This document shows, piece after piece, positions 9,374 to 41,587 of a stretch of DNA of 64,000 nt (within the stretch, counting starts at the first letter, position 1; every line of letters starts with the position of its first letter). This DNA is from Nitrospirales bacterium. Lineage in GTDB: Bacteria; Nitrospirota; Nitrospiria; Nitrospirales; UBA8639. The translations under genes were made by a program, and so were the position numbers. The notes beneath the pieces are model-generated. The model was not told the origin of the DNA. It was given only the letters and a program-made list of their open reading frames with translations, and did not search any database. The stretch spans positions 1,536,001-1,600,000 of the forward strand of contig CBDCWC010000003.1 in assembly GCA_965223295.1 (NCBI GenBank), written 5' to 3'.

Positions 9374-9458
9374 ACTTACAAGGTAAGTTAATTTGACAGA
9401 AAGTCAAGTATTACCAATGAATTATTAATAAAAGTAAGTAAGTAGCCTTCTTCCTTGT

Positions 9459-9496
9459 GAGCGAAATCGCACTTTCATCACAGAGCGAAAACGCTC
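9459..9496 (+). promoter_or_regulatory. Tandem palindromic enhancer-like sites (candidate bEBP upstream activating sequences)
   Basis: GAGCGAAATCGCAC (9459-9472) and GAGCGAAAACGCTC (9483-9496), 24 bp apart and 110-150 bp upstream of a sigma54 motif. Confidence 0.6.
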
Positions 9497-9604
9497 TTTT
9501 TTATAATATCCACCATAAATATATAGAAAATAGTTGCATGAAAATTGTTAAATTATATAAATATTTCAATTGTTTATGTGTTTATTTACGACACAATTAA
9601 ATAT

Positions 9605-9620
9605 TGGAATATAATTTGCA
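9605..9620 (+). promoter_or_regulatory. Sigma54 (-24/-12) promoter
   Basis: TGGAATATAATTTGCA has GG-N10-GC spacing. An AT-rich tract upstream holds the IHF-like TTTCAATTGTTTA (9564-9576). Confidence 0.65.
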
Positions 9621-9663
9621 GAATAATCATTGTATTACGTTAATTTATTGTAAGGAGCAAACA

Positions 9664-9735
9664 ATGGATCCACTTTTTGATTTAGCCATGATCGCCGTAG
9701 TTGCCATTATGGTTGGTTTTAATATTTACGGGTAA
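9664..9735 (+). CDS. 23-aa hydrophobic micropeptide MDPLFDLAMIAVVAIMVGFNIYG
   Basis: Perfect SD TAAGGAG (9651-9657) 6 nt before the ATG, directly downstream of the sigma54 motif. Confidence 0.65.
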   Translation: MDPLFDLAMIAVVAIMVGFNIYG

Positions 9736-10139
9736 TTAACCTTCTTTCATTTCTCTTGTAGTAAAAAGAGAAATTGAGGCGGTGTTGATCCGGGATCCCT
9801 CCCCAGTTTCTTCCATTCTTCAGGTCCTCTCTTCAAATCAAAGTGTTTCTACGTAATTAAAACTTCATAAGATCAAGGTTTTTAAGGAATTTTTTCTAAA
9901 ATTTCTTGAGGTCGCCCACTCCCTCCTGGTATATCTCTTTGACATCTCAAGGAGTTACGTAAAGCCGATAGCTTAAAGTTAGAGGTTTTTCAAAAATTCC
10001 ATTTCCCTTAAACAGTATGGGTTCTATCCAAATTATCGAGTGACTGACTCTCAGGAAGAAAAAAGGGGTCGGTGTCAATGCAAGCCGGTTTGTGTTGCTG
10101 GAAAGTGCTCCGGTAACTGGGACCGGCTTTGTTGTATAA

Positions 10140-10393
10140 GGTTCTGTTGAAAAAAGCTGCCGCCTACTCCGCCGGAGTCACTGGATGGGCTACGAAGGCC
10201 GGGAGCGGCGTTCCTGCCTTCGCCGGGCCTCCTTCGCCGTAGTGGCTATGAAGGCTGAAAGCGGCTTCGCGTTTACGCGCAGGAGCGCTTCACCGCGCAG
10301 GCGAGCGGACTTTTTTAAAAGACCCGAGGCCTCTGACATGTGAAACCGCAGAGGCTAAATGTGGCCATTGATATCATCATTATTCAACAGCCC
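10140..10393 (+). mobile_element. MITE-like repeat copy A, interrupted by nested REP-like palindromes
   Basis: Same ends as copies B-E (GGTTCTGTTGAAAAAAGC ... TTATTCAACAGCCC); centre replaced by GC-rich palindromic inserts. Confidence 0.75.
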
Positions 10394-10519
10394 CATTAAG
10401 AGTTGTCCACAAACAACAAAATGCTGTTGAAATTTGCGCGAAAGAGACTTCCGGCATCAGTTGGCTGATATCAAAATAATATAGGGCGATCCTTCTTCAT
10501 CAGTTTCTCAAATCCCATC

Positions 10520-12157
10520 ATGACCTCAAGCGAAAAGGACATTCCTAGAGGGCAGATTTCAGAATTCCCGAAACACTGGCAGGCGGATATGGTTTCGGGG
10601 TTTTTGGTTTTTTTGATCGCGCTTCCGCTGTGCTTGGGGATTTCTTTAGCCTGTGGCTACCCTGCGATTTCCGGGATTTTTACGGCGATAATTGGTGGGG
10701 TGCTGGCCACTTTTTTCAGTAACTCTGAGCTCACGATTAAAGGGCCGGCCGCGGGGCTCATTGTTATCGCTCTGGGATGTGTGACGGAATTTGGGTTTAC
10801 AGGTGGGGAAGACCCTGCTGCTGATCTTCAGGCCTATCGCTTGGCTCTTGGTGTTGGTGTCGCAGCTGGACTGATCCAAATTCTATTTGGAATAGGTCGG
10901 GCGGGAATTCTGGGGGAGTTTTTCCCGACTTCGGCGGTGCATGGCCTGCTCACTGCTATTGGCGTCATCATTATGGCCAAACAATTTCCGGTGGCCATGG
11001 GCCTGAGTCCTGCAGGAACGCCTTTGGAACTGCTGGCCAACATTCCACATTTTATTCTGAACATGAATCCCCTGGTCGGTGTGATTGGCGTGGTGAGTCT
11101 GGTCATCATGTTTGGGTATCCGTTTCTGAAGAACTCTCGGTTGACCGCCATCCCAGCGCCAATGCTGGTGTTATGTATCACAGTGCCTTTAGCTATGTAT
11201 TTCAATATTGGAGGCGAGCAGACGTATTCCTTCCAAGGACAGGACTATCCATTAGGAAAGAATTTTCTCGTGGCGGTTCCGGAGAATATGTTTCATGCTC
11301 TCACCTTCCCTGACTTTTCTGGTCTCGGCACAACGATAGGAATAAAATATGTGATCATGTTTGCTTTAATAGGGAGTATCGAATCTCTTCTCAGCGCCAA
11401 GGCGATTGATGAAATTGATCCGTGGAAAAGAAAAACGGATCATGATCGAGATATGCTCGCGGTGGGAGTTGGGAATACCCTTGCCTCGTTTGTGGGTGGT
11501 CTTCCCATGATTTCGGAAATCGTTCGCAGCAAGGCCAATATTGATAATGGGGCACGGACTCGATTTGCGAATATGTTTCACGGCCTGTTTCTCCTGGGGT
11601 TTGTGGCACTCATCCCGGGCCTCATCAATCAGATTCCCCTTGCGGCCCTTGGAGCCATGCTTGTCTTTACGGGGTTCCGACTAGCGTCTCCTCAAGAATT
11701 TGTCCACATGTGGCAAGTTGGACGTGAGCAATTTATTATTTTTGTCTCAACGGTCATTGGCGTCTTGTCGACTGATTTGCTGATGGGAATCGCGATTGGC
11801 ATTGGTGTAAATTTTTTGGTGCATCTGAAGAATGGAGCGCCTCCTAAGTCACTTCTGAAGACACAAGTTACGGTGGGACGGCAGGAAAAGGAAGGCGTTG
11901 TTGTTCGAGTCAAAGATTCGGCTATTTTTAGTACATGGATCGGTCTGAAAAAAACATTAGAACCCTTAGTGACAGAATCTCGCGTGATCCTGGATTTATC
12001 CGATACGGCTCTCGTTGACCACACGGTTATGTCTAAACTTCAAGATATGGAAAAGACCTTTCAGGAACATGGATCGACCCTAGTCCTTGTGGGATTAGAG
12101 CAGCATCAGCGACTGTCTGATCATCCTGCCGCAGCGAGAAAAAAGGTGCGAACATAG
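10520..12157 (+). CDS. SulP/SLC26-family anion (probably bicarbonate) transporter with C-terminal STAS-like domain
   Basis: VFLIALPLCLGISLACG, GPAAGL, GGLPMISEIVRS and VILDLSDTALVDHT; lies next to dabA. Confidence 0.92.
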   Translation: MTSSEKDIPRGQISEFPKHWQADMVSGFLVFLIALPLCLGISLACGYPAISGIFTAIIGGVLATFFSNSELTIKGPAAGLIVIALGCVTEFGFTGGEDPAADLQAYRLALGVGVAAGLIQILFGIGRAGILGEFFPTSAVHGLLTAIGVIIMAKQFPVAMGLSPAGTPLELLANIPHFILNMNPLVGVIGVVSLVIMFGYPFLKNSRLTAIPAPMLVLCITVPLAMYFNIGGEQTYSFQGQDYPLGKNFLVAVPENMFHALTFPDFSGLGTTIGIKYVIMFALIGSIESLLSAKAIDEIDPWKRKTDHDRDMLAVGVGNTLASFVGGLPMISEIVRSKANIDNGARTRFANMFHGLFLLGFVALIPGLINQIPLAALGAMLVFTGFRLASPQEFVHMWQVGREQFIIFVSTVIGVLSTDLLMGIAIGIGVNFLVHLKNGAPPKSLLKTQVTVGRQEKEGVVVRVKDSAIFSTWIGLKKTLEPLVTESRVILDLSDTALVDHTVMSKLQDMEKTFQEHGSTLVLVGLEQHQRLSDHPAAARKKVRT

Positions 12158-12160
12158 GTC

Positions 12161-15100
12161 ATGAAAGATTCGATGACGGTTGAATCAGTGAGACAAGAGG
12201 TTTCTCCTTTGACCCAAGAAGAACGGAAAATGCTTGGTGCTGTCATTGAATCGGCCAGTGAGCCCATCGCCCCGTTTTGGCCCATGCGGACTATGGTGGC
12301 TCAAAACCCCATTCATGGCTTGGAATATCTTTCATTTGATGAGGCGGTTCGACAGGGCAAAGATCTTCTTGGAGGCAATGGTTATCTGCCGAATGAAGAA
12401 TATCGGCAATTCTATTTGGAAGGGCGAATCACTCTCGAAAGTATTCAACGGGCATTAATCCCCGTAGGACCTCGGCCCCAATCACAAGAACCGATCACGA
12501 TCGGAACGCGTCAATTTTCTCCTCAAGATATTTGGAAATGGCATCTGGTTCGCGGCTTCGAGGAGTTGGAACCTGTCCTCTTGCAATGGGAGCTCAGTGG
12601 ACGAGGAGCCATTGAGGAATTTCGTTCAGACTTTCCCAGTGAAGCCAAACATCGGATTATCCAACGAACGATTAAGGAATGTGAGCATTGTCGAGACTTT
12701 CCCGAAAAGGCCTATTTAACAAATCTATGGAATGCCACCTTATTTACATTAGGTCTTCATGATTCTATCTCGGAAGAAAAGACTGATCATGCCTCTGCTC
12801 AAAAAGAATTTTCTGCCCGTGCCATAGAAGAATCACCACTCGTCATTGATTTACCCGTTCGGCGAACGATGAGTGATTGGATCGAATGCTTGAGTAGTGT
12901 TCCTTTGGTCGAACAGATCAATCACCAAATGATTAAGTGGATTGCCGCTTTTGTTGACGAGGGGCAAGCAGGTTGGCAAATGCCATTCAGGGAGAAGGGC
13001 TTTTTCCTCGCGTGGCAGGACTTGGCTCAATTGGACTACTCTGGGCACTTCTTGGGGATTACTGACTTTCATCAGAAAGTTCAAGCGTTGCCTCCTGACC
13101 CTGAAGAGGTCATTGCTTTGTGTCTGCGCCGTCTTGGCGTTCCTTACGCACAATGGCAATCGTATCTTGCCCGTGAGCTCTCTCAACTGCCAGGATGGAC
13201 TCGATACATTCGGTGGTTGGGAGAACATCCTCTGTATCATGCTCAACGACAACATCCGATTGACACGAGACAGTATTTGGCGGTTCGACTGTTTTATGAA
13301 GTGGAATTGACTAACATTTGCTGTCGACAAGAATGGGGAATTGATGGAACTGTTTCAGCCATGACGGCATATTGGAAGGACCGATCTGAAGAATATCGCA
13401 ATCGAATAGGAGAAGGAGGGCATTCTATTGATCAAACAGAACGGATGATATGCCGAGACGCCTGGCGATTATTTCATCTCGCACAATTCCTTGAGTTATC
13501 TCCAATTGAAGTCCATGACCTATCACTTGCTGATGCTCAGAAGATGTTGCAATGGCTAGATGAATTTCCTGCTGATCAGCATAGTTCCGTGTGGCTTGAA
13601 GCCTATGAAGAATCGTTTCGGGCAGACATCCTAAGCAAGATCTCCGCGCATCGGGAGACCGTTCCAGCCTTAACGTCTCGTCCTCATGCGCAATTGGTCT
13701 TTTGTATCGATGTACGCTCTGAATCATTTCGCCGTCATATTGAAGCCCAAGGTCCTTACGAAACGTTCGGGTTCGCGGGGTTTTTTGGCATACCTCTGAG
13801 CCATCAAGTCTTTGATAGTGATCAGCGTTCCTTCTTGTGCCCTGTACTACTTACTCCTAACCATGCCGTCATGGAAATACCCCGATCTGGAGAGGAAACG
13901 GCGTTAGAAAAGTATTCTTCTGGTACTCGCTGGCATCAGCTGGGGCATCATTTCTTTCATGATCTGAAACATCATCCTATTGGGTCTATGATGGCAATTG
14001 ATGTGCTAGGACTCTTTTTTAGTCTGGGGTTGGTGGGAAAAACCCTATTCCAAAAAACATTTCAGGGGATTACCTCGAGCATCGAGCGTTGGTTCACCTA
14101 TAGAGTGCCGACTCAAATCGCGGTTTGCGCTCCCGTCGATCAGAAGAACCCAAAAGTCGGAGAAGTGCATGCAGAAGGGGTTCCCGTGGGTCTCGCTCAG
14201 GGGTTTTCTTTGGCAGAACGAGCCACCTTTATCGAAAACGGCTTACGCGCCATGGGACTTTCACAGAATTATGCGCGGCTCGTGTGCCTCTGTGGCCATG
14301 GCAGTGAGACAGACAACAATCCCTATTATGGCGCATTGGATTGTGGGGCCTGTGGAGGAGCACCCGGAGATGCGAATGCGCGGGTCTTTGCTGCAATGGC
14401 GAATGATCCTCAGGTTCGGCGTATCTTGAAACAAAATGGGTTGCCCATTCCAGACGATACGTGGTTCCTTCCTGGGAAACATAACACGACAACTGATCGA
14501 GTCGAGTTTTACGATCTAGAAGAATTACCTGGTACACATATTGAAGATTTGCGTGCGTTGAACAAAGATCTAGAAGCAGCTGGTGCGAATCAAGCCCTTG
14601 AACGTTGCCATCGCATTCCACGTGCCCCGGAAGAGATTTCTCCAGAGCAGGCCTTTGCTCATGTCATGGAGCGCAGTTGCGATTGGGCCAACCCTCGACC
14701 GGAATGGGGGTTAGCTGGGAATGGCGCCTTTCTTATCGGGAGACGGAAGCTGACGAAAGGTTTGGATTTAGGCGGTCGTGTGTTTTTGCATTCGTATGAT
14801 CCTCTTGCTGATCCCGAGGGAGCCATCCTTGAAAAAATCATGACCGCACCCTTAATTGTCGGCGAATGGATTAGCACCGGCTATTACTTTTCCGCTGTGG
14901 ATCCATGGACCTATGGCAGTGGTAGTAAAGTCTTGCACAATGTGGTTGGTGGTGTTGGAATGATGTTGGGAAGCCAAAGTGATTTGCAAATGGGCTTTCC
15001 TTTACAAACGGTGAATAACGGAGACGTTCACTATCACGAACCCATGCGGCTACTCGCCATCATTGAACATAAGCCGAGTGTGATCTCGTCTATCATTCAA

Positions 15101-15226
15101 AAACATGCGATCCTTCAGCGGCTATTTCATAACCAGTGGTTAAATCTTGTTGCGATCGATCCCCACACCTTTGCGTTTCATCGCTATTTTCCTGATGGCC
15201 AGTGGGAAGCTGTCACTCACAACTGA
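12161..15226 (+). CDS. dabA: DabA/MpsB (DUF2309, UPF0753) beta-carbonic-anhydrase-like inorganic carbon pump subunit
   Basis: IAPFWPM, FCIDVRSE, GFAGFFG, GHGSETDNNP, LDCGACGG, RPEWGLAGN, FLHSYD, YHEPMRL. The Cys/Asp/His/Cys Zn ligands are intact. Confidence 0.95.
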   Translation: MKDSMTVESVRQEVSPLTQEERKMLGAVIESASEPIAPFWPMRTMVAQNPIHGLEYLSFDEAVRQGKDLLGGNGYLPNEEYRQFYLEGRITLESIQRALIPVGPRPQSQEPITIGTRQFSPQDIWKWHLVRGFEELEPVLLQWELSGRGAIEEFRSDFPSEAKHRIIQRTIKECEHCRDFPEKAYLTNLWNATLFTLGLHDSISEEKTDHASAQKEFSARAIEESPLVIDLPVRRTMSDWIECLSSVPLVEQINHQMIKWIAAFVDEGQAGWQMPFREKGFFLAWQDLAQLDYSGHFLGITDFHQKVQALPPDPEEVIALCLRRLGVPYAQWQSYLARELSQLPGWTRYIRWLGEHPLYHAQRQHPIDTRQYLAVRLFYEVELTNICCRQEWGIDGTVSAMTAYWKDRSEEYRNRIGEGGHSIDQTERMICRDAWRLFHLAQFLELSPIEVHDLSLADAQKMLQWLDEFPADQHSSVWLEAYEESFRADILSKISAHRETVPALTSRPHAQLVFCIDVRSESFRRHIEAQGPYETFGFAGFFGIPLSHQVFDSDQRSFLCPVLLTPNHAVMEIPRSGEETALEKYSSGTRWHQLGHHFFHDLKHHPIGSMMAIDVLGLFFSLGLVGKTLFQKTFQGITSSIERWFTYRVPTQIAVCAPVDQKNPKVGEVHAEGVPVGLAQGFSLAERATFIENGLRAMGLSQNYARLVCLCGHGSETDNNPYYGALDCGACGGAPGDANARVFAAMANDPQVRRILKQNGLPIPDDTWFLPGKHNTTTDRVEFYDLEELPGTHIEDLRALNKDLEAAGANQALERCHRIPRAPEEISPEQAFAHVMERSCDWANPRPEWGLAGNGAFLIGRRKLTKGLDLGGRVFLHSYDPLADPEGAILEKIMTAPLIVGEWISTGYYFSAVDPWTYGSGSKVLHNVVGGVGMMLGSQSDLQMGFPLQTVNNGDVHYHEPMRLLAIIEHKPSVISSIIQKHAILQRLFHNQWLNLVAIDPHTFAFHRYFPDGQWEAVTHN

Positions 15227-15430
15227 GCAGACTAAGGCGATATGTGGTGAGGAAGAAATGTCGCACCGATAAAAGAACGAAAATTCTTTTAGGAATGCCG
15301 GATTAAATTTTATCCGCGCTAATAAACTGGTAGCTGTACAATCTCACTAGAACCGTCTAGATGATTTTTCGCTGAATTCCTTTCAGCTTCCATAAGATTT
15401 CGGGATAAGGGAATGAATGGTGCTACATAA

Positions 15431-15958
15431 ATGACAAGCAAGGGTTTTTCTCCAGGGGCCCGCCCTAGACCGATTTCCTCACAATTCTTGATACTAAAGA
15501 CCACGGCACTCTTTGTGTTGTGGATCATGTTATCTGCAAGTTTCGACTGGATCCATCTTGGATTGGGTTTGGTTCTCTCGTTTGCGGTAGCGTGGGTGAA
15601 CTCTGGCCACTCTCCCTTTGTTCCCAAATTTCGATTGTGGGGTAACATCATTCTCTATCTCCCTTGGCTTTTTGTGAAAATCGTCCAAAGCAGTCTTCAT
15701 CTATCAAAGCTCATTCTTCACCCCGCGCTTCCCATTAATCCTAGGTTGATCCACGTGGAGACGCAATTGGGACATCATGCAGCAGTTGTGCTTCTTGGTA
15801 ATTCCATTACGTTGACTCCTGGAACGATCACCGCGGAAGTTGAACGTAATACGCTCATTGTTCACGCCATGGATGAAGTTTCAGCGCAGGATGTCACAAG
15901 TAAGCGGATCGAATCCAAAATTGCTGCAATTTTTAAAGATGAAAAGCCGGATCTATGA
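15431..15958 (+). CDS. mrpE: Mrp/Mnh antiporter subunit E
   Basis: LLGNSITLTPGTIT and LIVHAM. Confidence 0.92.
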   Translation: MTSKGFSPGARPRPISSQFLILKTTALFVLWIMLSASFDWIHLGLGLVLSFAVAWVNSGHSPFVPKFRLWGNIILYLPWLFVKIVQSSLHLSKLILHPALPINPRLIHVETQLGHHAAVVLLGNSITLTPGTITAEVERNTLIVHAMDEVSAQDVTSKRIESKIAAIFKDEKPDL

Positions 15959-16221
15959 AAGTATTTCTGCTCTGTGTTTTGATCTTATTGGCTTTACTCA
16001 TTGGTTCGTATTTGTATCGTGTGCTTCAGGGGCCCACGATTTTTGATCGTGTATTGGGTCTCAATGGCATTTCTACCAAGGCGATTATTCTCTTGATTGT
16101 GATGGGTATGTACTTTGAGCGAATCGACATGTTTATCGATATCTCGACTGGGTATGCCCTATTGAATCTGGTGGGAGCTCTTGCCGTCGCAAAATTTCTG
16201 GAACAAAGAGGACTACCCTAG
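15955..16221 (+). CDS. mrpF: Mrp/Mnh antiporter subunit F
   Basis: RVLQGPTIFDRVLGL; three TM segments; ATGA overlap with mrpE. Confidence 0.92.
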   Translation: MKVFLLCVLILLALLIGSYLYRVLQGPTIFDRVLGLNGISTKAIILLIVMGMYFERIDMFIDISTGYALLNLVGALAVAKFLEQRGLP

Positions 16222-16222
16222 C

Positions 16223-16522
16223 ATGGAAGTGACTGCTATCTCCTGTATTCTGGCTGGATTATTTTTCTTGATTGTTGCGGCGATTGGGGTGATTCGTCTG
16301 CCCGATGTGTTTAGTCGTTCTCACGCCGTTTCGCTTACAGACTCGTTAGGTGCCTTTCTGATGTTAGTGGGCATTGCGCTTCATGAGGGCCTGAGTACGA
16401 GTACCCTGAAAATTATTGCAGTCTTGGCATTACTCTATATTCAAAATCCGGTTATTGCCCATGCGACGGTTCGCGCCGCGATGCGAGCTGGCCTCAAACC
16501 GTGGAAACGAGAGACCTCATGA
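16223..16522 (+). CDS. mrpG: Mrp/Mnh antiporter subunit G
   Basis: GVIRLPDVFSRSHA and NPVIAHA. Start placed at ATG 16223. Confidence 0.92.
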   Translation: MEVTAISCILAGLFFLIVAAIGVIRLPDVFSRSHAVSLTDSLGAFLMLVGIALHEGLSTSTLKIIAVLALLYIQNPVIAHATVRAAMRAGLKPWKRETS

Positions 16523-17049
16523 CCTTTTCGTATGAAATCCCCTTGCTCGTTCTTCTCCTTGCCACCGCAGCCGGTGCCATATTAGTCAAAGATCTCATCA
16601 GTGCGATCTTGCTCTTGGGGTCTTATAGTTTTTTTCTGGCCTTGGTATGGGCTTGGTTAGGAGCGGTGGATGTGGCGTTTGTCGAAGCAGTTGTTGGAGC
16701 TGGGTTAGCCACCGTGCTTTTTTTGCTCACCCTGTTTGGAACCGCACCAAAAGACAATCGTCTTAGGCGGCCACCACCGCCCATGGCAGCATTAATTGCT
16801 CTTCCACTGTTAGGCCTTCTCTTGCTCTATGCAGCAAACGATCTTCCTGAGTTTGGAGATCCATATTCTCCTGCAAGTGTTCATATTTCGCCGACCTATC
16901 TCGAACAGAGTTATGCGGATACTCATACACCAAATGTTGTGACCTCGGTGCTGATGGATTACCGCTCGCTCGATACGATGGTGGAAACCGTGGTGATTTT
17001 TACGGCAGGTATTGCCTGTGCCCTTTTGTTGAGGAGACAAACCTCATGA
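16519..17049 (+). CDS. MrpA C-terminal fragment homolog (DUF4040/MbhD-like plus MbhE-like)
   Basis: AVDVAFVEAVVGAG and PNVVTSVLMDYRSLDTMVE; ATGA overlap with mrpG. Confidence 0.88.
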   Translation: MTFSYEIPLLVLLLATAAGAILVKDLISAILLLGSYSFFLALVWAWLGAVDVAFVEAVVGAGLATVLFLLTLFGTAPKDNRLRRPPPPMAALIALPLLGLLLLYAANDLPEFGDPYSPASVHISPTYLEQSYADTHTPNVVTSVLMDYRSLDTMVETVVIFTAGIACALLLRRQTS

Positions 17050-17498
17050 TTCAACCTCACGATAGTATCATTGTTCAGACCTTGGGACGTTTTCTCATTC
17101 CGGTAATCCAAATTTTTGGGCTGTACGTGTTGTTTTTCGGCCAATACGGTCCTGGTGGAGGATTTGTTGGAGGAGTGATCTTAGGGACGGGTATGATTTT
17201 ATCAGTGTTGATTTTTGGCCATGATGCATCTCGGAGTCAGGTGGCGAAAAAAGTATTGCACGGTGATGGAGTCGGCATGTTGATTTATGCTGGGGTGGGA
17301 GGCTTATGTATGATTGGGGGTGGAGAGTTTCTCAATTATGCCAATCTGGAGATTCCAGGGCTTGAGACAGCATCCCGCCGGTCATTGGGAATCATCTTGA
17401 CGCAAATTGGTGTGGCTGTGGATGTGGCTGTTACGGCGGTCTCCATTGTGTTCAGTCTTTCTGCTGAAGAAATTATGGAGGATTCGATGAATGGGTGA
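17046..17498 (+). CDS. mrpB: Mrp/Mnh antiporter subunit B
   Basis: GQYGPGGGFVGG motif. Confidence 0.9.
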   Translation: MIQPHDSIIVQTLGRFLIPVIQIFGLYVLFFGQYGPGGGFVGGVILGTGMILSVLIFGHDASRSQVAKKVLHGDGVGMLIYAGVGGLCMIGGGEFLNYANLEIPGLETASRRSLGIILTQIGVAVDVAVTAVSIVFSLSAEEIMEDSMNG

Positions 17499-17868
17499 TC
17501 TCTTTTCCGCCGTCTTTCAGCGTCCTAACTTTTTGACGTTTGTCATTATTTTCCTGTGGGGCTTTTATATCATGGTGACACGATATAACCTCGTCAAGAA
17601 ACTGGTCGGTTTGTATCTGGTGCAAACCAGCGTAATTTTTTTTCTGGTATCTATTAGTGCGAAGAAACACTCAACCGCTCCCGTTCTTCTGTCTACCACT
17701 GAAACCGTGCAAGCTATGAACTATGCGAATCCGTTGCCACATGTGCTGACGTTGACGGCTATTGTGGTTGGTGTCGCTACCTTGGGTGTGGCCTTGGCCT
17801 TGTGTGCTGCGATCTATCGACGATACGGCAGTCTTGATGAAGAAGAAATTCTAAAAAAATTAGAATGA
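17491..17868 (+). CDS. mrpC: Mrp/Mnh antiporter subunit C (NuoK-like)
   Basis: NLVKKLVGL, NPLPHVLTLTAIVVG, YGSLDEEEI. Confidence 0.92.
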   Translation: MGDLFSAVFQRPNFLTFVIIFLWGFYIMVTRYNLVKKLVGLYLVQTSVIFFLVSISAKKHSTAPVLLSTTETVQAMNYANPLPHVLTLTAIVVGVATLGVALALCAAIYRRYGSLDEEEILKKLE

Positions 17869-19334
17869 CTCATCACTTTCCAGCCATTCTGTTTCTGCTC
17901 CCTTTGTTTGCGGCGATTTCCATGCCAGTGGTTTGTTTGAAACACCGAGAATGGAGTCGGCCTATCTCTCTGGCTGTACTCGGGGCTATGGTTGTGGTCT
18001 CCATTCTGAATCTCATCAGTGTCATCAATCACGGAGAAGTGCGATATGCCTTTAGTGGCTGGACTGCACCATTAGGCATTGAGTGGGTCGCAGATGGTTT
18101 AGCGAGCGTAATCCTTATGACATTGAGTCTCTTGGGTTTGCTGGCGTTGGTCTTTACCGGGCCTACTTCACCAAAAGATCTTGGTGGACGAATTGTTCAT
18201 TATTACATCTTGATCTTGCTGCTAATTTCCGCGCTCACTGGAATTGTGTTTGCAGGAGATTTATTTAATCTATTCGTATTTTTAGAAGTCGCAGCCATAT
18301 CCAGTTATGCACTCATTGGCGTGGCTGGAGGCAGAGCTCTATTCGCCGCTTTTCGTTATCTCGTGTTGGGAACGCTTGGGGCTTCCCTCTATTTATTAGG
18401 GGTGAGTTATTTCTACGCGGCCAGTGGGACGCTCAATATGGCAGATATGGCTCAGAAACTCCCCCAATTATTGACCTCGAAAGCTGTGGTCGGCGGGCTT
18501 CTTTTTATGTTCATAGGATTAGGCATCAAAATGGCTTTGGTGCCGTTCCATGCATGGCTGCCGGACGCCTACACGTATGCTCCGGAATCAATATCTCCTA
18601 TTTTGGCGGCATTGGTCACCAAGGTGGCATTATTAGGATGGGTCCGCATAATTTACTGGGTTCTGGGTGCCAAGGCCATCGTCTACGACATTCCTGTGCT
18701 CTTACTCGTGGGGATACTGGGCACTCTGGCGGCGGTCATTGGTGCGGTTCTCGCCCTGTCTCAGCGAAACATTAAAATGATGTTTGCCTATGGGGGGATT
18801 TCTCACATTGGCATCATTCTTATTGGCGTGAGTCAGGGTAACCATACAGGATTTGTGGGGGGTGTCTTCTATTTACTGAACGATGCAGTTATGCAAGCAG
18901 CATTGTTTTTTTTAGCAGGGGTAGCCATTTGCCAGTATGGCGTTCGGACCGTAGAAGATATTGGGCAAATTGGGAGACAAGCGCCTTGGTTTACGGGGGC
19001 TTTGGTGGTCGTGGCGCTAGGTATGATAGGCCTTCCTCCGACTGGGGGATTTTTTGGAAAATGGTATATCATTCTTGGAGCACTTGAAGCGAACAATTAC
19101 ATCGCAGTCGCCGCAGTTTTACTCTCGACTCTCCTGACGCTTGCCTATTTCGTGAAACTATTTGAGGCGATCTTTCGTCAACCAGCAACTCAATCGGAGA
19201 TGCTTCCAGGGGAGATTCCTTTCCCTTATAAACTGAGTGTGGGGATGACAGCCGCGGCCGTGATGATCTTAGGTCTGTTGAGTGACCCCATTGTTCAGTT
19301 TTTATTGAACCAGGCATTGCCACCCGGTATTTGA
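17865..19334 (+). CDS. mrpD: Mrp/Mnh antiporter subunit D
   Basis: DLFNLFVFLEV, GIKMALVPFHAWLPDAY, GLPPTGGFFGKW. Confidence 0.92.
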   Translation: MTHHFPAILFLLPLFAAISMPVVCLKHREWSRPISLAVLGAMVVVSILNLISVINHGEVRYAFSGWTAPLGIEWVADGLASVILMTLSLLGLLALVFTGPTSPKDLGGRIVHYYILILLLISALTGIVFAGDLFNLFVFLEVAAISSYALIGVAGGRALFAAFRYLVLGTLGASLYLLGVSYFYAASGTLNMADMAQKLPQLLTSKAVVGGLLFMFIGLGIKMALVPFHAWLPDAYTYAPESISPILAALVTKVALLGWVRIIYWVLGAKAIVYDIPVLLLVGILGTLAAVIGAVLALSQRNIKMMFAYGGISHIGIILIGVSQGNHTGFVGGVFYLLNDAVMQAALFFLAGVAICQYGVRTVEDIGQIGRQAPWFTGALVVVALGMIGLPPTGGFFGKWYIILGALEANNYIAVAAVLLSTLLTLAYFVKLFEAIFRQPATQSEMLPGEIPFPYKLSVGMTAAAVMILGLLSDPIVQFLLNQALPPGI

Positions 19335-19342
19335 AGGAAGCT

Positions 19343-21439
19343 ATGGCTATCTTTGTTTTGATTCCTTTGCTCCCTCTCCTTGCCTCGGTTCTCCTTCTTC
19401 TTGGAGGACGGCGATGGGGTGAGCAAAGTCACCGGATCGGAATTCCTGCTATAGGCCTGTCGTTTGGTTTGTCAGTGCTCGCTTTTCTTGAGGTCTTGCG
19501 TAACGGGCCTTTCTCTCTCTCTCTTTATCGTTTCTTTCAGTCTGGATCGTTATCCATTGACTTAGGTTTGTTTGTTGATCAACTCACCGTCCTGCTTTTG
19601 CTCTTGGTCACAGGGGTGAGTGGTGTGGTGCATGTGTATTCTTCCCGGTACATGATTGGAGACCCACGATACAACCGATTCTTTGCGGTCATCGCGTTGT
19701 TTACCTTTTCTATGGTGTTGCTTGTCATGAGTAACAACCTGTTGATGTTGTTGGTCAGTTGGGAAATTATGGGGATCTGTTCGTATCTCTTGATTTCCCA
19801 TGCCGCACAGCGACCCTCGGCAGGTCGGGCAGCGACCAAGGCGTTTTTGGTCAATGCGGTGGCGGATGTCGGGCTCAGTTTCGGAATTATTTTGACGTTT
19901 TTCACATTCGGCACGCTTGACATCCAAACTATCCTCACTGAGGCCGAAAGCATGCAGCATCAGAGGATCAATATTCTGGGATGGATGGGAGGAAATCTCC
20001 TCGTCAATCCAGTAACGCTTATTCCTTTCTTTTTATTCATCGGGGCTATGGGTAAGTCAGCTCAAATGCCGTTTCATATATGGTTGCCGTTTGCCATGGA
20101 AGCCCCCACTCCGGTGTCGGCATTGATTCACGCGGCGACCATGGTAAACGCCGGTCCGTTCCTGCTTGTGCGATTGAGCCCCTTGCTCGTCCTTTCTCCG
20201 TTCACTATGACCTTCATTGCGGTCATTGGAGCCACTACTGCGCTGTTCGCTGGTATTGTTTCCCTGACGCAGTCTGACATTAAAAAGATTTTGGCATATT
20301 CCACGATTAGCCAAATTGGTTTCATGATTATGACCTGCGGTTTAGGTGCATTCGTCGTGACGATTTTTCACCTGCTTGCTCATGGTTGTTATAAAGCGTT
20401 CTTCTTTCTTTCAACGGGGAATGCGCTTCGATCCGTCGCTCAAGGTCATGCCCATAGAGAGCAGGAGTATCATGCACCTCAAGGTATGGGCGTGTTGTAT
20501 GGTGGTGCGCTGTTATTGGCGTTGATTCCTCCGATTATTCTGTTTTCAGGTGCGTATGAAAACTTGTGGGGAGTGATGGGATTTGCTTCTGCCACAATTG
20601 GATTCCGCGTCATTGGTCTGATCACAGTGTTTGTGGCTTCTATGTATCTCTTCCGAAGCGTCACGTCGTTATTTGTTCATGGTCCAAAGACATATTGGCC
20701 GGTATCAGGCCAATCGGCGTTGCAGACACAATCCATTCGACCACAGTTTGTGAATGGTTCGATAATGGTTGGTCTTCTCATTGTCACGGTGATCGTAGGA
20801 GTAGCATTGACGCTGTTTTGGAGTTGGTTTGTCAGCTTCCTTGCTCCCGCATTAGCCCTTGCTGGTGTTGCGACGAATGAAGGAACGGTTGGGATCGGTT
20901 TCTCGATTTGGCTTCTGGGGGCTATTGGGATGGCCATTTCGGGATGGGTTTGTGCGTATTCGTGCGCTCAACCTGGCTCGCAAGTTGTCTGGTCAACTAG
21001 TAAAAACACAAGGTTATACATGCTCTTCTGGAATAAATGTTATTTTGATGAATTTTATGATGCCTATTTAGTGAACCCGACCATTCGATTTTCCCATTGG
21101 CTCTGGCACATGATTGATGTTGGGGTCATCGATAGATTCATACATTCCATCGCAACCTATTCCATTCTCTTTGCACGTTGGCTCTGGCGGATTGTGGATA
21201 TCAAAGGTATTGATCGAATGGTGATGGGTATTGGACGACAGAGCGTTGGTATGAGTGGATGGCTTTGGAAAGTGGTGGATATTCGATGGTTGGAAAAGAC
21301 AGTCAGTCAAGTGGGTAGCCAAGCAGATACGGCAGGGCAATTATTGCAAGAGGTCGAACCTCGTACCATTCAACATCAATTACTCGTCATGATACTTTGG
21401 CTGGTCTTGGCAACCGGACTATTATATATCTTGGTTTAA
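19343..21439 (+). CDS. dabB: DabB/NuoL-like antiporter-type subunit with an elongated C-terminal lateral helix
   Basis: WEIMGICSYLLI, GKSAQMPFHIWLP, MEAPTPVSALIHAATMVNAG, HLLAHGCYKAFFFL. NuoL-type tail NKCYFDEFY with three WLWxxxD repeats. ATG 19343 follows an AAGGAAG SD. Confidence 0.8.
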   Translation: MAIFVLIPLLPLLASVLLLLGGRRWGEQSHRIGIPAIGLSFGLSVLAFLEVLRNGPFSLSLYRFFQSGSLSIDLGLFVDQLTVLLLLLVTGVSGVVHVYSSRYMIGDPRYNRFFAVIALFTFSMVLLVMSNNLLMLLVSWEIMGICSYLLISHAAQRPSAGRAATKAFLVNAVADVGLSFGIILTFFTFGTLDIQTILTEAESMQHQRINILGWMGGNLLVNPVTLIPFFLFIGAMGKSAQMPFHIWLPFAMEAPTPVSALIHAATMVNAGPFLLVRLSPLLVLSPFTMTFIAVIGATTALFAGIVSLTQSDIKKILAYSTISQIGFMIMTCGLGAFVVTIFHLLAHGCYKAFFFLSTGNALRSVAQGHAHREQEYHAPQGMGVLYGGALLLALIPPIILFSGAYENLWGVMGFASATIGFRVIGLITVFVASMYLFRSVTSLFVHGPKTYWPVSGQSALQTQSIRPQFVNGSIMVGLLIVTVIVGVALTLFWSWFVSFLAPALALAGVATNEGTVGIGFSIWLLGAIGMAISGWVCAYSCAQPGSQVVWSTSKNTRLYMLFWNKCYFDEFYDAYLVNPTIRFSHWLWHMIDVGVIDRFIHSIATYSILFARWLWRIVDIKGIDRMVMGIGRQSVGMSGWLWKVVDIRWLEKTVSQVGSQADTAGQLLQEVEPRTIQHQLLVMILWLVLATGLLYILV
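21098..21340 (+). repeat. Three 81-nt (27-aa) tandem units within dabB/nuoL
   Basis: WLW codons begin at 21098, 21179 and 21260, an exact 81-nt period. Confidence 0.85.
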
Positions 21440-21472
21440 CCATCTGTTTCTTAAAGAATAAAGATTAAACAT

Positions 21473-22978
21473 ATGGGCATATTGATGGATCACATCATTA
21501 GTTGGATGGTTGCTGTTCCTTTTTTAGGAATCGGGATTCTTGCGTTTGTCCGTGATGAAGAATGGATTAGACGAGTCGCCTTTGGTGCCACCATGGTGGA
21601 GTTTTTCCTCTCGATGGTCCTTTGGAGCAGTTTTGATTTTACCCAACAAGGTATGCAATTCGTTGAACGTGTGGAGTGGATGCCCACCTTCAATATTCAA
21701 TATGCCGTTGGCGTGGATGGGATCAGTATCCTGTTAGTCATCCTTACTGCTCTTCTGTGCCCACTTTGTGTTCTGTGTTCGTGGAACGCTATCACTACGC
21801 GAGTGCGAGCGTATCTGTCGCTGATCTTGCTTGTTGAAGGTGCGATGATTGTTGTCTTTACAGCTTTAGATCTTTTCCTCTTCTTCATGTTGTGGGAACT
21901 CACCATGATTCCCATGTATTTTATGATTATTTTGTGGGGAGGTCCGAATCGTATCACAGCAGGAATTAAATTTGTCTTGTACAGTCTGACGGGCAGCTTG
22001 TTATTGCTCGTGGGAATTCTTGGCCTCTACTTAGAAGGTGGGCATACCTACGATCTGTTGGTTCTCAGCGAACAAACGTATTCCTCTAGAACGCAATTCT
22101 GGCTATTTCTTGCGCTCTTCTTAGCGTTTGCCATCAAAATGCCCATGGTGCCATTTCACACCTGGTTGCCTGACGCACATTCCGAGGCCCCAACAGTCGG
22201 TAGCGTCATTTTAGCTGGAGTGCTGTTGAAAATGGGGGGCTATGGATTCTTGCGCTTTTGTTTGCCAATGTTTCCCGAAGCTTCGGTGAAATTTGCGCCG
22301 TATATATTATGGCTCTCTGTCATTGCCATTATCTATGGAGGCTACATGGCTTTGGCACAGTCTGATCTCAAAAAACTCGTCGCGTATTCCTCGGTCTCAC
22401 ATATGGGATTTGTCACTCTTGGGATCTTTGTTTTTAACAGTCAGGGAATCCAGGGCGCCATTTTACAAATGTTTAATCACGGGATTACCACTGCGGCTTT
22501 ATTTATTTCAGTGGGGCAACTCTATGATCGCACCCACAGCCGAGCCATCGGTGATTACGGGGGGTTGCATAAGCCCATGCCTAGGTTCGTAGCATTATTC
22601 TTTTTGTTCTCAGTTGCGTCATTTGGACTGCCGGGTACCTGTAATTTTATTGGTGAATTTTTGGTGCTTGTTGGGACGTCCTATGTCAATTTCGCGATGG
22701 TCTTGATTTCTATGGGAGGGATTGTCTTAGCCGCGGCCTATATGCTGTGGATGCTACAACGTTTGGCTTTAGGCGAACCGAACAAAGAAGTTGTGAGAGT
22801 GCTGCCAGACTTAACAAGTCGAGAATTAGCCACCGTAATTCCTCTAGCGGTACTTGTCCTCTGGATCGGACTATATCCGGGCCCATTGATGGAGATGATG
22901 GATGCGAGTGTGACTCATCTCGTTCAGCAGGTCGCTGCGTATGAATCCGCTCTTCCTGAGCACACGGTCTTACGTTAA
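21473..22978 (+). CDS. nuoM: NuoM-like antiporter-type subunit
   Basis: GVDGIS, WELTMIPMY, AIKMPMVPFHTWLPDAH, LLKMGGYG, LVAYSSVSHMG, FIGEFLVL. Confidence 0.93.
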   Translation: MGILMDHIISWMVAVPFLGIGILAFVRDEEWIRRVAFGATMVEFFLSMVLWSSFDFTQQGMQFVERVEWMPTFNIQYAVGVDGISILLVILTALLCPLCVLCSWNAITTRVRAYLSLILLVEGAMIVVFTALDLFLFFMLWELTMIPMYFMIILWGGPNRITAGIKFVLYSLTGSLLLLVGILGLYLEGGHTYDLLVLSEQTYSSRTQFWLFLALFLAFAIKMPMVPFHTWLPDAHSEAPTVGSVILAGVLLKMGGYGFLRFCLPMFPEASVKFAPYILWLSVIAIIYGGYMALAQSDLKKLVAYSSVSHMGFVTLGIFVFNSQGIQGAILQMFNHGITTAALFISVGQLYDRTHSRAIGDYGGLHKPMPRFVALFFLFSVASFGLPGTCNFIGEFLVLVGTSYVNFAMVLISMGGIVLAAAYMLWMLQRLALGEPNKEVVRVLPDLTSRELATVIPLAVLVLWIGLYPGPLMEMMDASVTHLVQQVAAYESALPEHTVLR

Positions 22979-25097: not shown

Positions 25098-26249
25098 ATG
25101 TTTATGAATAGGACAAAAATCATCGTTGCCATTCTCGTATGCTGGATGCTTGCGGGTTGTGCGAGCCAACAGGCTCATGAACGGGCTATGGAAGAGTTAG
25201 AAATGGCTAGCCAAAACTCTGCCCAAGAAGTTGAGCGGCTGCAACGCATTGTTGAGGAGCAGCAGGCTCAAGTTCTCCAACTGGAGGAAAATAAGCAAGA
25301 ACTTGAAAAGGCAATTGAAACCAAAGAAACGGCTGTCGTCCGACTTCAGGAGAAAAATGTTGACTTAGTAGACGAGGTAAAGCTTAAAGAACAAGAAAAG
25401 GAAGAGCAACTGCAAACGGTGAAATCTGAACTGCAAACACTGTATTCCGAGATTGCTGGGTTACAAGAGTTGACCGGGGTTGGGTCATTTTCGAAAGGAA
25501 GCTTGGAAGGGGACGACCTGAGTGATTTAAGCAATATGGCCAAAGCCTTTCAACATGTTCGGGATACTCTGCAGTCGCAAATTGATCATTTTTCTCAATT
25601 GCAACAGAACAACAAAGCATTAGAGCAAAATCTCGTTCAACTAGAGGACCGCCTGAAAAATGTTGAGCGGTTGAAAAGAGAGTTGGAAGAAGTGCGAGCA
25701 GCTCGTGAGGCGCAAGAGTCTCAACTAGCCAAAGTGAAACAGGAAGTCAATACCGTGAGCCGAGAAATTGACCGCATTACGCAAGCTCTGGAAGAAAAAT
25801 TTGGGAAGAGCTTAGTGGTGACTCAGCATCAGGACCGATTGGTCTTAACGATGCTCGGGCAAATTTTATTTGCCTCGGGAGAAGCACAACTTACGCCCTT
25901 GGGCCTTGATATTATGAAGCAAGTTGGGGAAGTGTTAGCAACATTGCCCAACAAGAATATCCAAGTGGAAGGCCATACCGACAATAATCCTATTTATGGC
26001 CGGCTTCAAAAAAGATTTCCGACGAATTGGGAATTATCAACGGCCCGGGCCACGACTGTGCTTCGGTATTTGATTGAGCAAACCGGTATGGATCCGAAAG
26101 ATTTCGCCGCTACCGGCTATGCTGATACACGGCCAGCTGTGGCAAACGACACTGATGAAGGGCGGGCTCAAAATCGTCGTGTGGAAATTGTGCTGTATCC
26201 AGAACGAGTTATTGATGATACCAAGAAAATGGCCACCCTTGCTCAATAA
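25098..26249 (+). CDS. Lipoprotein with long coiled coil and C-terminal OmpA/MotB peptidoglycan-binding domain
   Basis: Lipobox LAGC, GGAGGAG SD, VEGHTDN, NWELSTARA, AQNRRVEI. Confidence 0.92.
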   Translation: MFMNRTKIIVAILVCWMLAGCASQQAHERAMEELEMASQNSAQEVERLQRIVEEQQAQVLQLEENKQELEKAIETKETAVVRLQEKNVDLVDEVKLKEQEKEEQLQTVKSELQTLYSEIAGLQELTGVGSFSKGSLEGDDLSDLSNMAKAFQHVRDTLQSQIDHFSQLQQNNKALEQNLVQLEDRLKNVERLKRELEEVRAAREAQESQLAKVKQEVNTVSREIDRITQALEEKFGKSLVVTQHQDRLVLTMLGQILFASGEAQLTPLGLDIMKQVGEVLATLPNKNIQVEGHTDNNPIYGRLQKRFPTNWELSTARATTVLRYLIEQTGMDPKDFAATGYADTRPAVANDTDEGRAQNRRVEIVLYPERVIDDTKKMATLAQ

Positions 26250-27893: not shown

Positions 27894-28111
27894 GCGAGCC
27901 CTTTCCTTTGAAGCGACCACTGAGCGTTAGTAAGTGAGAACTCTGCTGAGGATATTCCTAAGGCACGTCATAGAGGAATTGAGACGAAAAGCCTTCTATC
28001 GAGGTACGCTTATTATAGGAAGCTATTTCCTTCTAATCAAAGCATAAAGGTATAAAAATGAGAAAAATTCTGTTTCCTTTTAGAGATGGACGCAATGAGG
28101 GATAGGTTCTC

Positions 28112-29864: not shown

Positions 29865-29949
29865 CGTGATTAACTCAAACAATCTAAAAAACAATCAATA
29901 GGGATCAACTGCAAGGGAGCAGGTGCTCATAGACCTATACCCTGTAGTC

Positions 29950-29977
29950 TTTTCGGAGAACAACATGAGAAAATTAA
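29950..29977 (-). promoter_or_regulatory. Sigma28-like promoter
   Basis: TTAA-N16-TCCGAAAA upstream of the HD-GYP gene. Confidence 0.55.
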
Positions 29978-30111
29978 GAGAAACAAAAAATTTTCTCTCA
30001 ACTAGAGAGAAATTGGTTAGGACACGCTCATACTATTTGGTGGGTGTCCTTATTCCTCAGTGAGCCGGCATGTTGACTTGCTGCGATGCAGCAGCGACAT
30101 AGTCATTACTA

Positions 30112-30302
30112 GGGCCTATTGTAAAAAGCCACCAGCGGCGTTCTCGCCATTGTTCCGTGCTCACGTAGGACCAGTGCGCTCCGCGCGCAAAAATGGCTGT
30201 GGCCTTGCTGGACGGGCTTTTTTGAACAGACCCGAGGCTGCTGACATGGTCCGTTGCAGAGACGAAATTTGGCCGTTGATATCATCATTATTCAACCGTT
30301 CC
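30112..30302 (+). mobile_element. MITE-like repeat copy B
   Basis: About 190 bp, homologous to the other copies, flanked by TA on both sides (30110-30111, 30303-30304). Confidence 0.85.
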
Positions 30303-30519
30303 TACTAGGAAATATTTTCTTAAGTTGGAAAACTCAAGGCCTGATTGTAAGGAGTCCTGAAAGGGGTGGTCAGCCAAGTTAGGATGTTTCATCCTACAAA
30401 TTTTTGGAGGTGAGCAGAATTCAAGTACCAAAGAAAGATAGGTAGATTACTCGGACCTCATATCACCTGAGGTGCGCCGAACTGCCTGGTTTATGCAACT
30501 GCGATATGATTCTCATGAG

Positions 30520-36409: not shown

Positions 36410-36533
36410 GAGAAAGACAAAGAGGGGGGAAATATAAAGTGTAGCCGATTATGCAACAACTGACAAAGGGTTCGACTGTAGCTCTGATTGCGAACTCGAT
36501 TGTAAAGAGCAGTCGGGCTGTGTGAGAAAGGGG

Positions 36534-37643: not shown

Positions 37644-37771
37644 GGAGAGGTGTTGATGCTGGATTTATTGATTTGTCGTCTGTTCTTTAGATATTCAATG
37701 AATCCATTGAACCAGTCTATTGCTGAAGAATTCCTTGCTGATGGATATGAATATTTATGTATTCTGTTTCA

Positions 37772-40996: not shown

Positions 40997-41002
40997 GAGA
41001 AC

Positions 41003-41551: not shown

Positions 41552-41587
41552 ATTCTAACGCGCTTTACCGACTCAAATGTTGGTTTA

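Follow-up and report, generated by a model that had tools for sequence, protein, structure and literature searches.

Gene content of the cluster

The window analysed here is a 64,000-nucleotide (nt) stretch of the genome of a Nitrospirales bacterium (contig CBDCWC010000003.1, positions 1,536,001 to 1,600,000). It contains a gene cluster that encodes a SulP-family transporter, a DabA protein of the type known from DAB carbon uptake complexes, a set of Mrp antiporter subunits and two further antiporter-like proteins, here called L and M. Eleven open reading frames (ORFs), all on the + strand, fill positions 10520-22978 of the window:

10520..12157, +, SulP-family anion transporter with STAS domain (545 amino acids, aa; PF00916, 191 bits)
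12161..15226, +, DabA, carbonic-anhydrase-like cytoplasmic subunit, L/M-associated clade (1021 aa; PF10070, 866 bits)
15227..15430, spacer between dabA and mrpE (204 nt)
15431..15958, +, MrpE (175 aa; PF01899, 111 bits)
15955..16221, +, MrpF (88 aa; PF04066, 51 bits)
16181..16522, +, MrpG (113 aa; PF03334, 76 bits; TIGR01300, 74 bits, cut-off 63)
16501..17049, +, MrpA', the C-terminal module of MrpA (MbhD + MbhE) as a gene of its own (182 aa; PF13244 and PF20501)
17046..17498, +, MrpB (150 aa; PF04039, 81 bits)
17491..17868, +, MrpC, NuoK-like (125 aa; PF00420, 73 bits; the top NCBIfam matches are MrpC models)
17865..19334, +, MrpD, antiporter-like, of the MrpD/MbhH/MbsH type (489 aa; PF00361)
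19331..21439, +, L, NuoL-type antiporter-like subunit (702 aa; PF00662 and PF00361; TIGR01974, 458 bits, cut-off 407.5)
21473..22978, +, M, NuoM-type antiporter-like subunit (501 aa; PF00361 and PF01059)

Gaps of 3 nt and 33 nt separate sulP from dabA and L from M, respectively, and the seven junctions from mrpE through L each overlap by 4 to 41 nt. The 204-nt gap between dabA and mrpE contains neither a terminator-like nor a promoter-like site in a consensus scan. MrpA' matches NF009159 (168 bits, cut-off 141) and aligns with about residues 600-790 of full-length MrpA models, and the nearest solved relatives of MrpD are MbsH (6u8y_H, 189 bits), MrpD (7qru_D, 179 bits) and MbhH (6cfw_H, 169 bits). 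The Mrp complement of the cluster consists of MrpB to MrpG and the MrpA C-terminal module; a full-length MrpA, or a core of the MrpA lineage, is absent. Among the eleven genes and the scanned flanking ORFs, Pfam detected no NuoB, NuoC, NuoD, NuoH, NuoI or hydrogenase domain; the combination of a NuoH/MbhM-like subunit with a NuoB/C/D/I-type redox module, by which complex I, Mbh and Mbs are recognised, is absent from both. The initial annotation had described eleven co-directional, mostly overlapping or abutting genes in which small Mrp subunits and MrpD lie between dabA and a DabB-like gene, followed by a NuoM gene, without full-length mrpA, NuoB/C/D/H/I or hydrogenase subunits. The Pfam and NCBIfam assignments agree with this description, which is confirmed in every point of locus composition.

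The host genome (3.78 Mb in three contigs) has two DabA genes and a single MnhE (MrpE-type) gene, that of the cluster. Its second DabA belongs to a canonical operon of the DAB1 type. DAB1 denotes the DabA-DabB-DabC complexes of Halothiobacillus neapolitanus and Thermocrinis albus, and DAB2/MpsAB the DabA-DabB complexes. The operon encodes DabB (564 aa), a 358-aa protein in the DabC place that has no Pfam match, DabA (1081 aa) and PII:

G000:C3:136353-142903 (locus L004, 8354-14904), -, canonical DabB-DabC-DabA-PII operon of the host genome

The genuine nuo operons sit elsewhere in the same genome.

Gene order in related genomes

The initial annotation had suggested looking for dabA beside the mrp block in related genomes, and the outcome was clearly positive. 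Among 41 related genomes, 22 of the 24 MnhE matches come directly after a DabA match with the same orientation on the same contig, 130-620 nt downstream as measured between the Pfam matches; of the other two, one stands at the beginning of a contig and one is an additional, weaker MnhE. A scan of public contigs with the window DabA yielded 70 loci, onto which the eleven window proteins were mapped by tblastn. By record title these are 36 Nitrospirota, 31 Nitrospinota, 2 Bryobacterales (Acidobacteriota) and 1 Candidatus Rariloculales (Gammaproteobacteria). Four contigs stop within 500 nt of dabA and so give no information on what follows, which leaves 66. The genes from mrpE onward follow dabA on the same strand in 63 of these 66, always in the order E-F-G-A'-B-C-D-L-M as far as the contig reaches (M is reached in 50 loci), and no mrp gene occurs within 10 kb of dabA in the other three (L023, and L059 and L071, in which dabA is in pieces). 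Recurring across four phyla, the arrangement is far beyond chance. The distance between dabA and mrpE is <600 nt in 52 of the 63 loci, 1.9-4.1 kb in 8 and 7.2-9.7 kb in 3, and it is only at this junction that insertions are found.

The overlaps between genes are conserved as well, counted wherever tblastn matches reach the exact gene ends. mrpE and mrpF overlap by 4 nt at all 35 readable junctions, A' and B by 4 nt at 25 of 26, B and C by 8 nt at 41 of 41, and C and D by 4 nt at 48 of 50. The gene for L overlaps mrpD by 4 nt in 20/20 cases, as the mrp genes overlap one another, and is thus embedded in the mrp block like the mrp genes themselves. The junction between L and M is always gapped (33-125 nt, and >50 nt in 24 of 28).

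Within the host's own family, 39 of 68 MnhE matches lie <1 kb downstream of DabA, 17 at 1-5 kb and 5 at 5-13 kb. The remaining seven have no upstream DabA on the same contig and strand; they comprise three extra MnhE copies, three copies on contigs with no DabA listed upstream, probably because of assembly breaks, and genome G105. G105 keeps both parts in intact form at a distance of about 263 kb, with dabA at C1:1393093-1396089 and the EFGA'BCDLM block from C1:1129732 onward. Across the class, DabA occurs in 345 and MnhE in 110 of 401 genomes, both tallies including one unpublished genome (G300), which no individual claim depends on. In other families of the class, twelve of the MnhE regions retrieved belong to canonical mrpA-G operons without DabA (L075-L081, L083-L087) and share 25-37% identity with the window subunits, and the dabA-EFGA'BCDLM block occurs also in single genomes of three further families (G165, G042, G063). 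A metagenome scan with the L alignment relied on generic patterns, and 78 of the 80 loci kept were without DabA or small Mrp subunits; the informative ones are L115, which carries the same dabA-mrp-L-M block, and L116, to which we return below.

Conserved order could also reflect youth. In that case the cluster would be a mobile block without functional meaning, spread by horizontal transfer among marine nitrite oxidisers recently enough for its order to be kept. Lateral transfer itself has support, since the window DabA and L are closer to Nitrospina, a member of another phylum, than to several other Nitrospirales (quick trees and identities), which suggests that the whole block moved laterally between marine nitrite oxidisers. 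Order and overlaps are kept, however, where several subunits have fallen to 42-55% identity (Bryobacterales, Rariloculales, G042 and G063), dabA and the block are both intact though unlinked in G105, and insertions are confined to the dabA-mrpE junction. We regard a block without function as very improbable.

The distribution of the two parts within genus g8 (38 genomes, mostly closed) is consistent with a coupling of dabA to the mrp genes. Of the 22 genomes with MnhE, 19 have an intact DabA of this type, as does none of the 16 without. Eight of these 16 have DAB1-type DabA only; in the other eight the gene survives in truncated or fragmented form, interrupted in five by an in-frame TGA. In G231 a DabA remnant and a partial MnhE lie 2 kb apart. 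The remnants of the Mrp-linked DabA in G085, G127, G154, G178, G209 and G231 extend from residue ~14 to 500-530 with one in-frame TGA; the first five of these genomes have lost the mrp block and G231 keeps its partial MnhE. Several remnants share breakpoints, so few loss events are implied, and the remnants suggest one or few ancestral deletions.

SulP is less regularly associated with the cluster. In 35 of the 70 loci, dabA is preceded on its own strand by a homologue of 45% identity or more (28/36 in Nitrospirota, 2/2 in Bryobacterales, 1/1 in Rariloculales and 4/31 in Nitrospinota). The protein scores 105 bits against the BicA model NF050096, for which the cut-off is 880, and falls below the cut-offs of the DauA and sulP models of NCBIfam as well. 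With a score so far under the BicA cut-off it can only be assigned to the SulP family, and the parallel bicarbonate route that the initial annotation had given it finds no backing in these models.

The insertions at the dabA-mrpE junction have a recurring content. In L010, L038, L060 and L092 a DAB1 operon is inserted there in inverted orientation. A ~2-kb insert consists of a gene for a DegP/HtrA-type protease (Trypsin_2 and two PDZ domains) in four of the five inserts scanned, and in the fifth (L026) of a helicase/DUF559 gene:

L022, 13141-14673, HtrA-type insert
L051, 13119-14693, HtrA-type insert
L062, 13192-14727, HtrA-type insert
L073, 13083-14663, HtrA-type insert

A protease of the same type is encoded just upstream of the host's own DAB1 operon (L004 15546-17075, -), a recurrent association of HtrA with DAB genes.

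DabA and its putative partner L

The DabA of the cluster aligns with the solved DabA2 (9rd0_A, 382 bits) and retains the motifs FCIDVRSE, GHGS, LDCGAC and DWANPRPEWGL. Residues C515, D517, H713 and C728, which we take to correspond to the four Zn ligands of DabA2, are invariant in 53 orthologues. The protein is a PF10070 DabA with the beta-carbonic-anhydrase-like Zn site of Cys, Asp, His and Cys, and the statement of the initial annotation that the Zn ligands are kept holds. In a quick tree, 12 L/M-associated DabAs are split from 9 DAB1-type DabAs of the same class with a support of 100 in the Shimodaira-Hasegawa-like approximate likelihood ratio test (SH-aLRT). A thiol-redox role for DUF2309, put forward for Leptospirillum in the available part of PMC9080137, was not adopted because the CxxC stretch is accounted for in solved DabA structures as belonging to the Zn site.

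L aligns with the host's own complex I NuoL at 426 bits, with the NuoL of a second nuo cluster (one with two nuoM genes) at 340 bits and with the host's DabB (DabB1) at 288 bits; against solved chains it reaches 245-274 bits with NuoL/Nad5, 135 bits with DabB2 (9rd0_B) and 120-130 bits with MrpA. A quick maximum likelihood tree (30 rows, 608 columns, SH-aLRT support only) gives a different placement. The 12 L proteins form one clade (SH-aLRT 99) that is sister to 8 canonical DabBs (99), and the host's two NuoLs and four canonical MrpAs fall outside this group. The NuoL-favouring scores are explained by the long stem on which DabB sits in the tree. We therefore rejected the simple candidate of a plain complex I NuoL, which the scores favour but the tree and the genomic context do not. 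L is sister to the DabB clade and not inside it, and lies 4.1 kb downstream of dabA behind the seven mrp genes.

Further support for L as the partner of DabA comes from genomes in which there is little choice. G105, G012, G165, G027 and G063 carry only this type of DabA, and all five are without a separate DabB. Their PF00662 genes are L, a complex I-type NuoL in G105, G012 and G165, and weak matches in NuoM/N-sized frames in G027 and G063. The quick trees of L and DabA are congruent.

Structure prediction of a complex of L residues 1-445 with DabA residues 470-1021 gave a score of 0.73, the best of three controls reaching 0.00. Of 80 solved complexes 58 reach this mark, as do 2 of 110 mismatched pairs, benchmark counts that hold only roughly for a prediction fed with custom alignments, as here. 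At least 90% of contacts are shared between runs, and the partner has a predicted local distance difference test (pLDDT) value of at least 78. The predicted contacts join three elements of DabA, the finger/elbow (594-629), the NNPY..DCGAC segment (718-723) and the DW..RPEWGL segment (841-846), to L residues 96-112 and 343-367 (transmembrane helix 11, TM11). The same elements are described for the DAB1 and DAB2 interfaces in the parts of the DAB structure papers available to us. The model supports binding of DabA by L in the manner of DAB.

The C-terminal part of L is a long amphipathic helical region with a conserved terminal membrane anchor. The helical region is longer than in the host's own NuoLs and consists of 2-4 copies of a ~21-residue repeat, WLWR.VD..ID (window 21080-21300, residues ~585-655). 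Three copies are present in the window and in G030, a genome whose locus is without mrp genes, two in Bryobacterales, four in G042 and ~1 in the host's NuoLs (compared in L088, L054 and L110). We considered whether the length of this lateral helix could indicate how many subunits it spans and dropped the idea, as repeat numbers range from 2 to 4 among L proteins and the Mrp-less G030 has three, like the window. The AlphaFold2 (AF2) model of L is poor at the lateral helix (mean pLDDT 61.5, and <50 at residues 591-680).

The initial annotation had proposed that a DabB-like gene takes the place of the MrpA core. The first half of this proposal fares well, the tree, the five genomes of five without another DabB and the 0.73 against 0.00 in the prediction all supporting L as the DabB equivalent of the cluster. 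The second half, L as a stand-in for the MrpA core, is put forward here as a proposal that is consistent with the coupling to mrpD.

M aligns with the NuoM of the host's own complex I at 551 bits and is sister to that NuoM in the tree. Of 13 columns with charged residues or His common to the genome's three NuoM copies, 12 are kept in at least 80% of 44 M orthologues. DabC aligns with the NuoM helices next to NuoL and has lost the charged residues, according to the portion of the DAB1 paper available. Given this alignment and the charged residues that M keeps, M is a plausible full-length, ion-competent counterpart of DabC, as judged from sequence.

Loci of this type have been interpreted differently in the literature. 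Daebeler et al. (PMC7784846) describe, in the accessible account of Ca. Nitrospira alkalitolerans, a group 3 Mrp with two NuoM/NuoL-like genes after mrpD, together with bicA, nhaB and motB, and propose that Na+ extrusion drives BicA. PMC12342949, in the passages at hand, reports extra nuoL and nuoM genes beside Mnh/Mrp in lineage IV Nitrospirales, reads MnhBCDEFG as a marine adaptation and finds the cluster enriched in marine lineages; PMC3578206 likewise describes an eight-subunit Mnh-type antiporter in Nitrospina gracilis as a salt adaptation. On this interpretation mrpEFGA'BCD, with L and M as additional MrpA/MrpD-like subunits, would form a stand-alone group-3-type Mrp for salt and pH, Na+ extrusion would energise a BicA-like SulP, and DabA, though related in its physiological role, would be a neighbour and no subunit of the antiporter. 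Beyond these reports it can draw on the translational coupling of L to mrpD, on the existence of DabA-less EFGA'BCD clusters, and on two genes nearby:

25098-26249, +, OmpA/MotB-like protein with a coiled-coil N-terminus
26298-27920, -, NhaB Na+/H+ antiporter (PF06450, 805 bits)

These lie 2-5 kb past the cluster and are the same company as at the published Mrp/BicA locus (PMC7784846, as far as its description goes). The interpretation has difficulty, however, with the 63 informative loci (of 66, across four phyla) in which DabA stands between sulP and mrpE, with the lack of any DabB-type partner other than L in five of five genomes, and with the position of L in the quick tree as sister to DabB and not MrpA. 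The predicted DabA-L interface reproduces that of DAB, intact DabA of this type is found in 0/16 g8 genomes without MnhE, and SulP is far under the BicA model cut-off. A bystander DabA is in our judgement unlikely.

A candidate carbon pump and its relation to known systems

We hypothesize, with a probability of roughly 55%, that the cluster encodes a DAB-type carbon uptake machine in which L and M are joined to an Mbh-type Mrp module in a single membrane arm. DabA, as the Zn-dependent carbonic-anhydrase-like head, would dock on L, a sister lineage of DabB, and M would sit where the small DabC sits in DAB1. The Mrp module (E, F, G, A', B, C and D) would be joined to L-M, with L providing the missing MrpA core; in most members of the clade, the window included, this module lies inserted between dabA and L and is coupled translationally to L. 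From the DabA end, the arm would run L, M, MrpD, MrpA'BC and MrpEFG. It would be a redox-free counterpart of the complex I membrane arm that comprises three antiporter-like subunits and bears DabA at its L end. Because the cluster has no redox module, the energy would have to come from ion gradients: movement of H+ and/or Na+ through the arm would drive one-directional CO2 hydration and bicarbonate would accumulate in the cytoplasm. Additional anion transport and Na+ cycling would come from SulP and from NhaB close by. A role for Na+ is attractive in view of the marine or alkaline habitat, the NhaB neighbour and the Na+-linked Mrp module. The analysis itself establishes which genes are present, their conserved order and motifs, where DabA and L fall in the trees, and that dabA and the mrp block are retained and decay together. 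Binding of DabA to L is a prediction, and the assembly of L and M with the Mrp module, the coupling ion, the direction of flux and the substrate of SulP are what we infer.

Several observations speak against a joined arm. By score alone L is nearer to NuoL than to DabB (426 against 288 bits in the own genome, 245-274 against 135 bits among solved chains), and the tree that places it with DabB is a quick one of 30 rows with two NuoLs and four MrpAs only, all of one class. The complex predictor may also pass close cousins of a true partner. dabA is separated from mrpE by 204 nt in the window and by up to 9.7 kb elsewhere, and the number of repeats in L does not track the presence of Mrp, the Mrp-less G030 having three. 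Joint loss, as in g8, can be trivial for adjacent genes, and kin are not independent. G030 (locus L110) has dabA (1093 aa), L (737 aa) and M without intervening mrp genes, and neither MnhE nor MnhB was found in this genome, which is 90% complete. The metagenome contig L116 is a second dabA-L-M case without mrp genes between; both contigs end inside M. Conversely, EFGA'BCD clusters with two further antiporter-like genes occur without DabA (L088, minus strand, and L089). In G042 such a second cluster (L088, 597-8150, -) encodes antiporter-like proteins of 492 aa and 596 aa and an 81-aa ORF. The modules can therefore be encoded apart, and from the arrangement in G030 and L116 the Mrp module looks like an add-on to a DabA+L+M core.

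Two of these loci have neighbours of interest. In L110 (5263-6078) an alpha-type (eukaryotic-type) carbonic anhydrase gene, followed by a tandem-Usp gene and an unknown gene, precedes the Mrp-less dabA-L-M. In G042 the DabA-less cluster stands head to head with the dabA cluster, and an MpsC (PF10057) gene (L088, 8533-8916, +) lies directly upstream of dabA.

The separable modules raise the question of two complexes sharing one operon, with DabA, L and M forming a DAB1-like trimer, in which M replaces DabC, and MrpEFGA'BCD a small co-expressed Mbh-like module that has MrpD as its only antiporter-like subunit and rebalances the H+ or Na+ of the pump. Mbh works with a single MrpD-like subunit. 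The dabA-L-M loci without mrp genes (G030/L110 and L116) fit such an arrangement, the G030 DabA and L fall in the same clades as their Mrp-linked counterparts in the quick trees, and the L-M (33-125 nt) and dabA-mrpE junctions are the only ones without overlap. Yet the mrp block lies precisely between dabA and L and not beside the unit, and it overlaps L by 4 nt at 20 of 20 junctions. Moreover, the lateral helix and the NuoL/MrpA-type core needed by a canonical Mrp could come from no gene of the cluster but L, and L has a helical region longer than that of the host's own NuoLs together with a conserved C-terminal anchor. We consider separate complexes improbable, and continue to prefer the single arm.

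A more specific form of the single arm is tentative, and we hold it at clearly less than even odds. In this form ten subunits, DabA-L-M-MrpD-MrpA'BC-MrpEFG, would make up a redox-free arm in which downhill flow of Na+ and/or H+ through Mrp mechanically drives the carbonic-anhydrase-like head by way of the three antiporter-like subunits. Most nitrite oxidation in the ocean is the work of Nitrospina and marine Nitrospirales, which have very little energy to spend on carbon fixation; the marine nitrite oxidisers considered here fix carbon by the reductive tricarboxylic acid (TCA) cycle. If the ten-subunit form is true, these organisms would own a CO2 trap driven by sodium motive force, a third solution beside the redox-driven NDH-1MS and the minimal, proton-driven DAB. 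If DabA is driven through an Mrp-type arm at all, this would show that the energy input of a known carbon pump is modular, and genes annotated for salt-tolerance antiporters would be reassigned, at least partly, to carbon acquisition. How coupling reaches over a long range along antiporter-like subunits is an open question for complex I and Mrp, and the cluster would offer a natural complex in which it ends in a simple, assayable reaction. The cluster is also a candidate part for engineered carbon-concentrating mechanisms that run on Na+ gradients.

The remaining surroundings of the cluster are as follows. A 1.1-kb AT-rich spacer (9374-10519, G+C content about 0.38) with short ORFs only lies upstream of sulP and contains a strong promoter-like site (9588-9615) and a terminator-like hairpin (9482-9497). 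On the - strand further downstream are two tandem DUF3391+HD_5 (HD-GYP-like) genes (28524-31869) and a dense group of PAS/GAF hybrid histidine kinases and response regulators with a TonB-dependent receptor (33296-50319). Rfam gave no match anywhere in the 64-kb window at gathering thresholds, and a search for RNA sequencing runs that contain 12161-21439 listed none.

DAB1 and DAB2 are among the closest known systems. The window DabA belongs to PF10070 with the same Zn-site and coupling motifs, its candidate NuoL-like partner combines PF00662 and PF00361 and is predicted to use the same interface elements, and, as in DAB1, there is a third membrane subunit (M) on the NuoM side. Unlike DabB, L forms a clade of its own and has 702 aa with the long lateral-helix region and anchor, compared with 564 aa for the host's DabB1 and 551 aa for DabB2 (9rd0_B). 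dabA and L are separated by seven Mrp genes, and the cluster is not followed by a PII gene, unlike dabA in the host's DAB1-PII operon. M is a full NuoM with charged residues, unlike the half-sized, hydrophobic DabC of the DAB1 paper as far as available.

The Mrp part resembles split-MrpA (group 3) Mrp of the CPA3 family as well as Mbh and Mbs, with MrpE, F, G, B, C and D and a separate MbhD+MbhE protein, and its gene order E-F-G-A'-B-C-D corresponds to mbhA-H. It differs from Mrp in lacking an antiporter core of the MrpA clade, L grouping with DabB and NuoL, in having three antiporter-like subunits and not two, and in the dabA gene that heads the block.

Cyanobacterial NDH-1MS and MS' carry the CO2-hydrating proteins CupA and CupB on NdhF3/D3 or F4/D4 of a complex I-type arm. 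A CO2-hydrating protein mounted on antiporter-like subunits of such an arm is the concept that they share with the cluster. Unlike them, the cluster has no Cup protein, NuoH/A or redox module, and L is not an NdhF3 (TIGR01960, 149 bits against a cut-off of 589).

Among reported gene neighbourhoods, 'clade C' of the COGNAT study (PMC5700660) places ybcC upstream of a nuoL homologue together with COG0659 (SulP) and COG1008 (NuoM). SulP, DabA, a NuoL homologue and NuoM thus occur together in this order there and here. The parts of its main text consulted name no small Mrp subunits, and the Mrp-less L110 and L116 fit clade C better than the window does. The loci of PMC7784846 and PMC12342949 are, judged by their description, of the same type as the window, and these papers treat L and M as extra Mrp subunits. 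In the portions available, the text on the locus in these two papers and in PMC3578206 mentions neither DabA nor DUF2309, although supplementary figures may show the gene. The available DAB structure papers mention no Mrp-linked forms, and our literature searches returned no paper linking DabA to small Mrp subunits, a point on which supplementary files may bear. The view of the initial annotation that no complex of this composition has been characterised must therefore be narrowed: the locus type itself has already been published, in Nitrospira, as an Mrp antiporter, and it is the link of DabA to the Mrp block that appears to be new.

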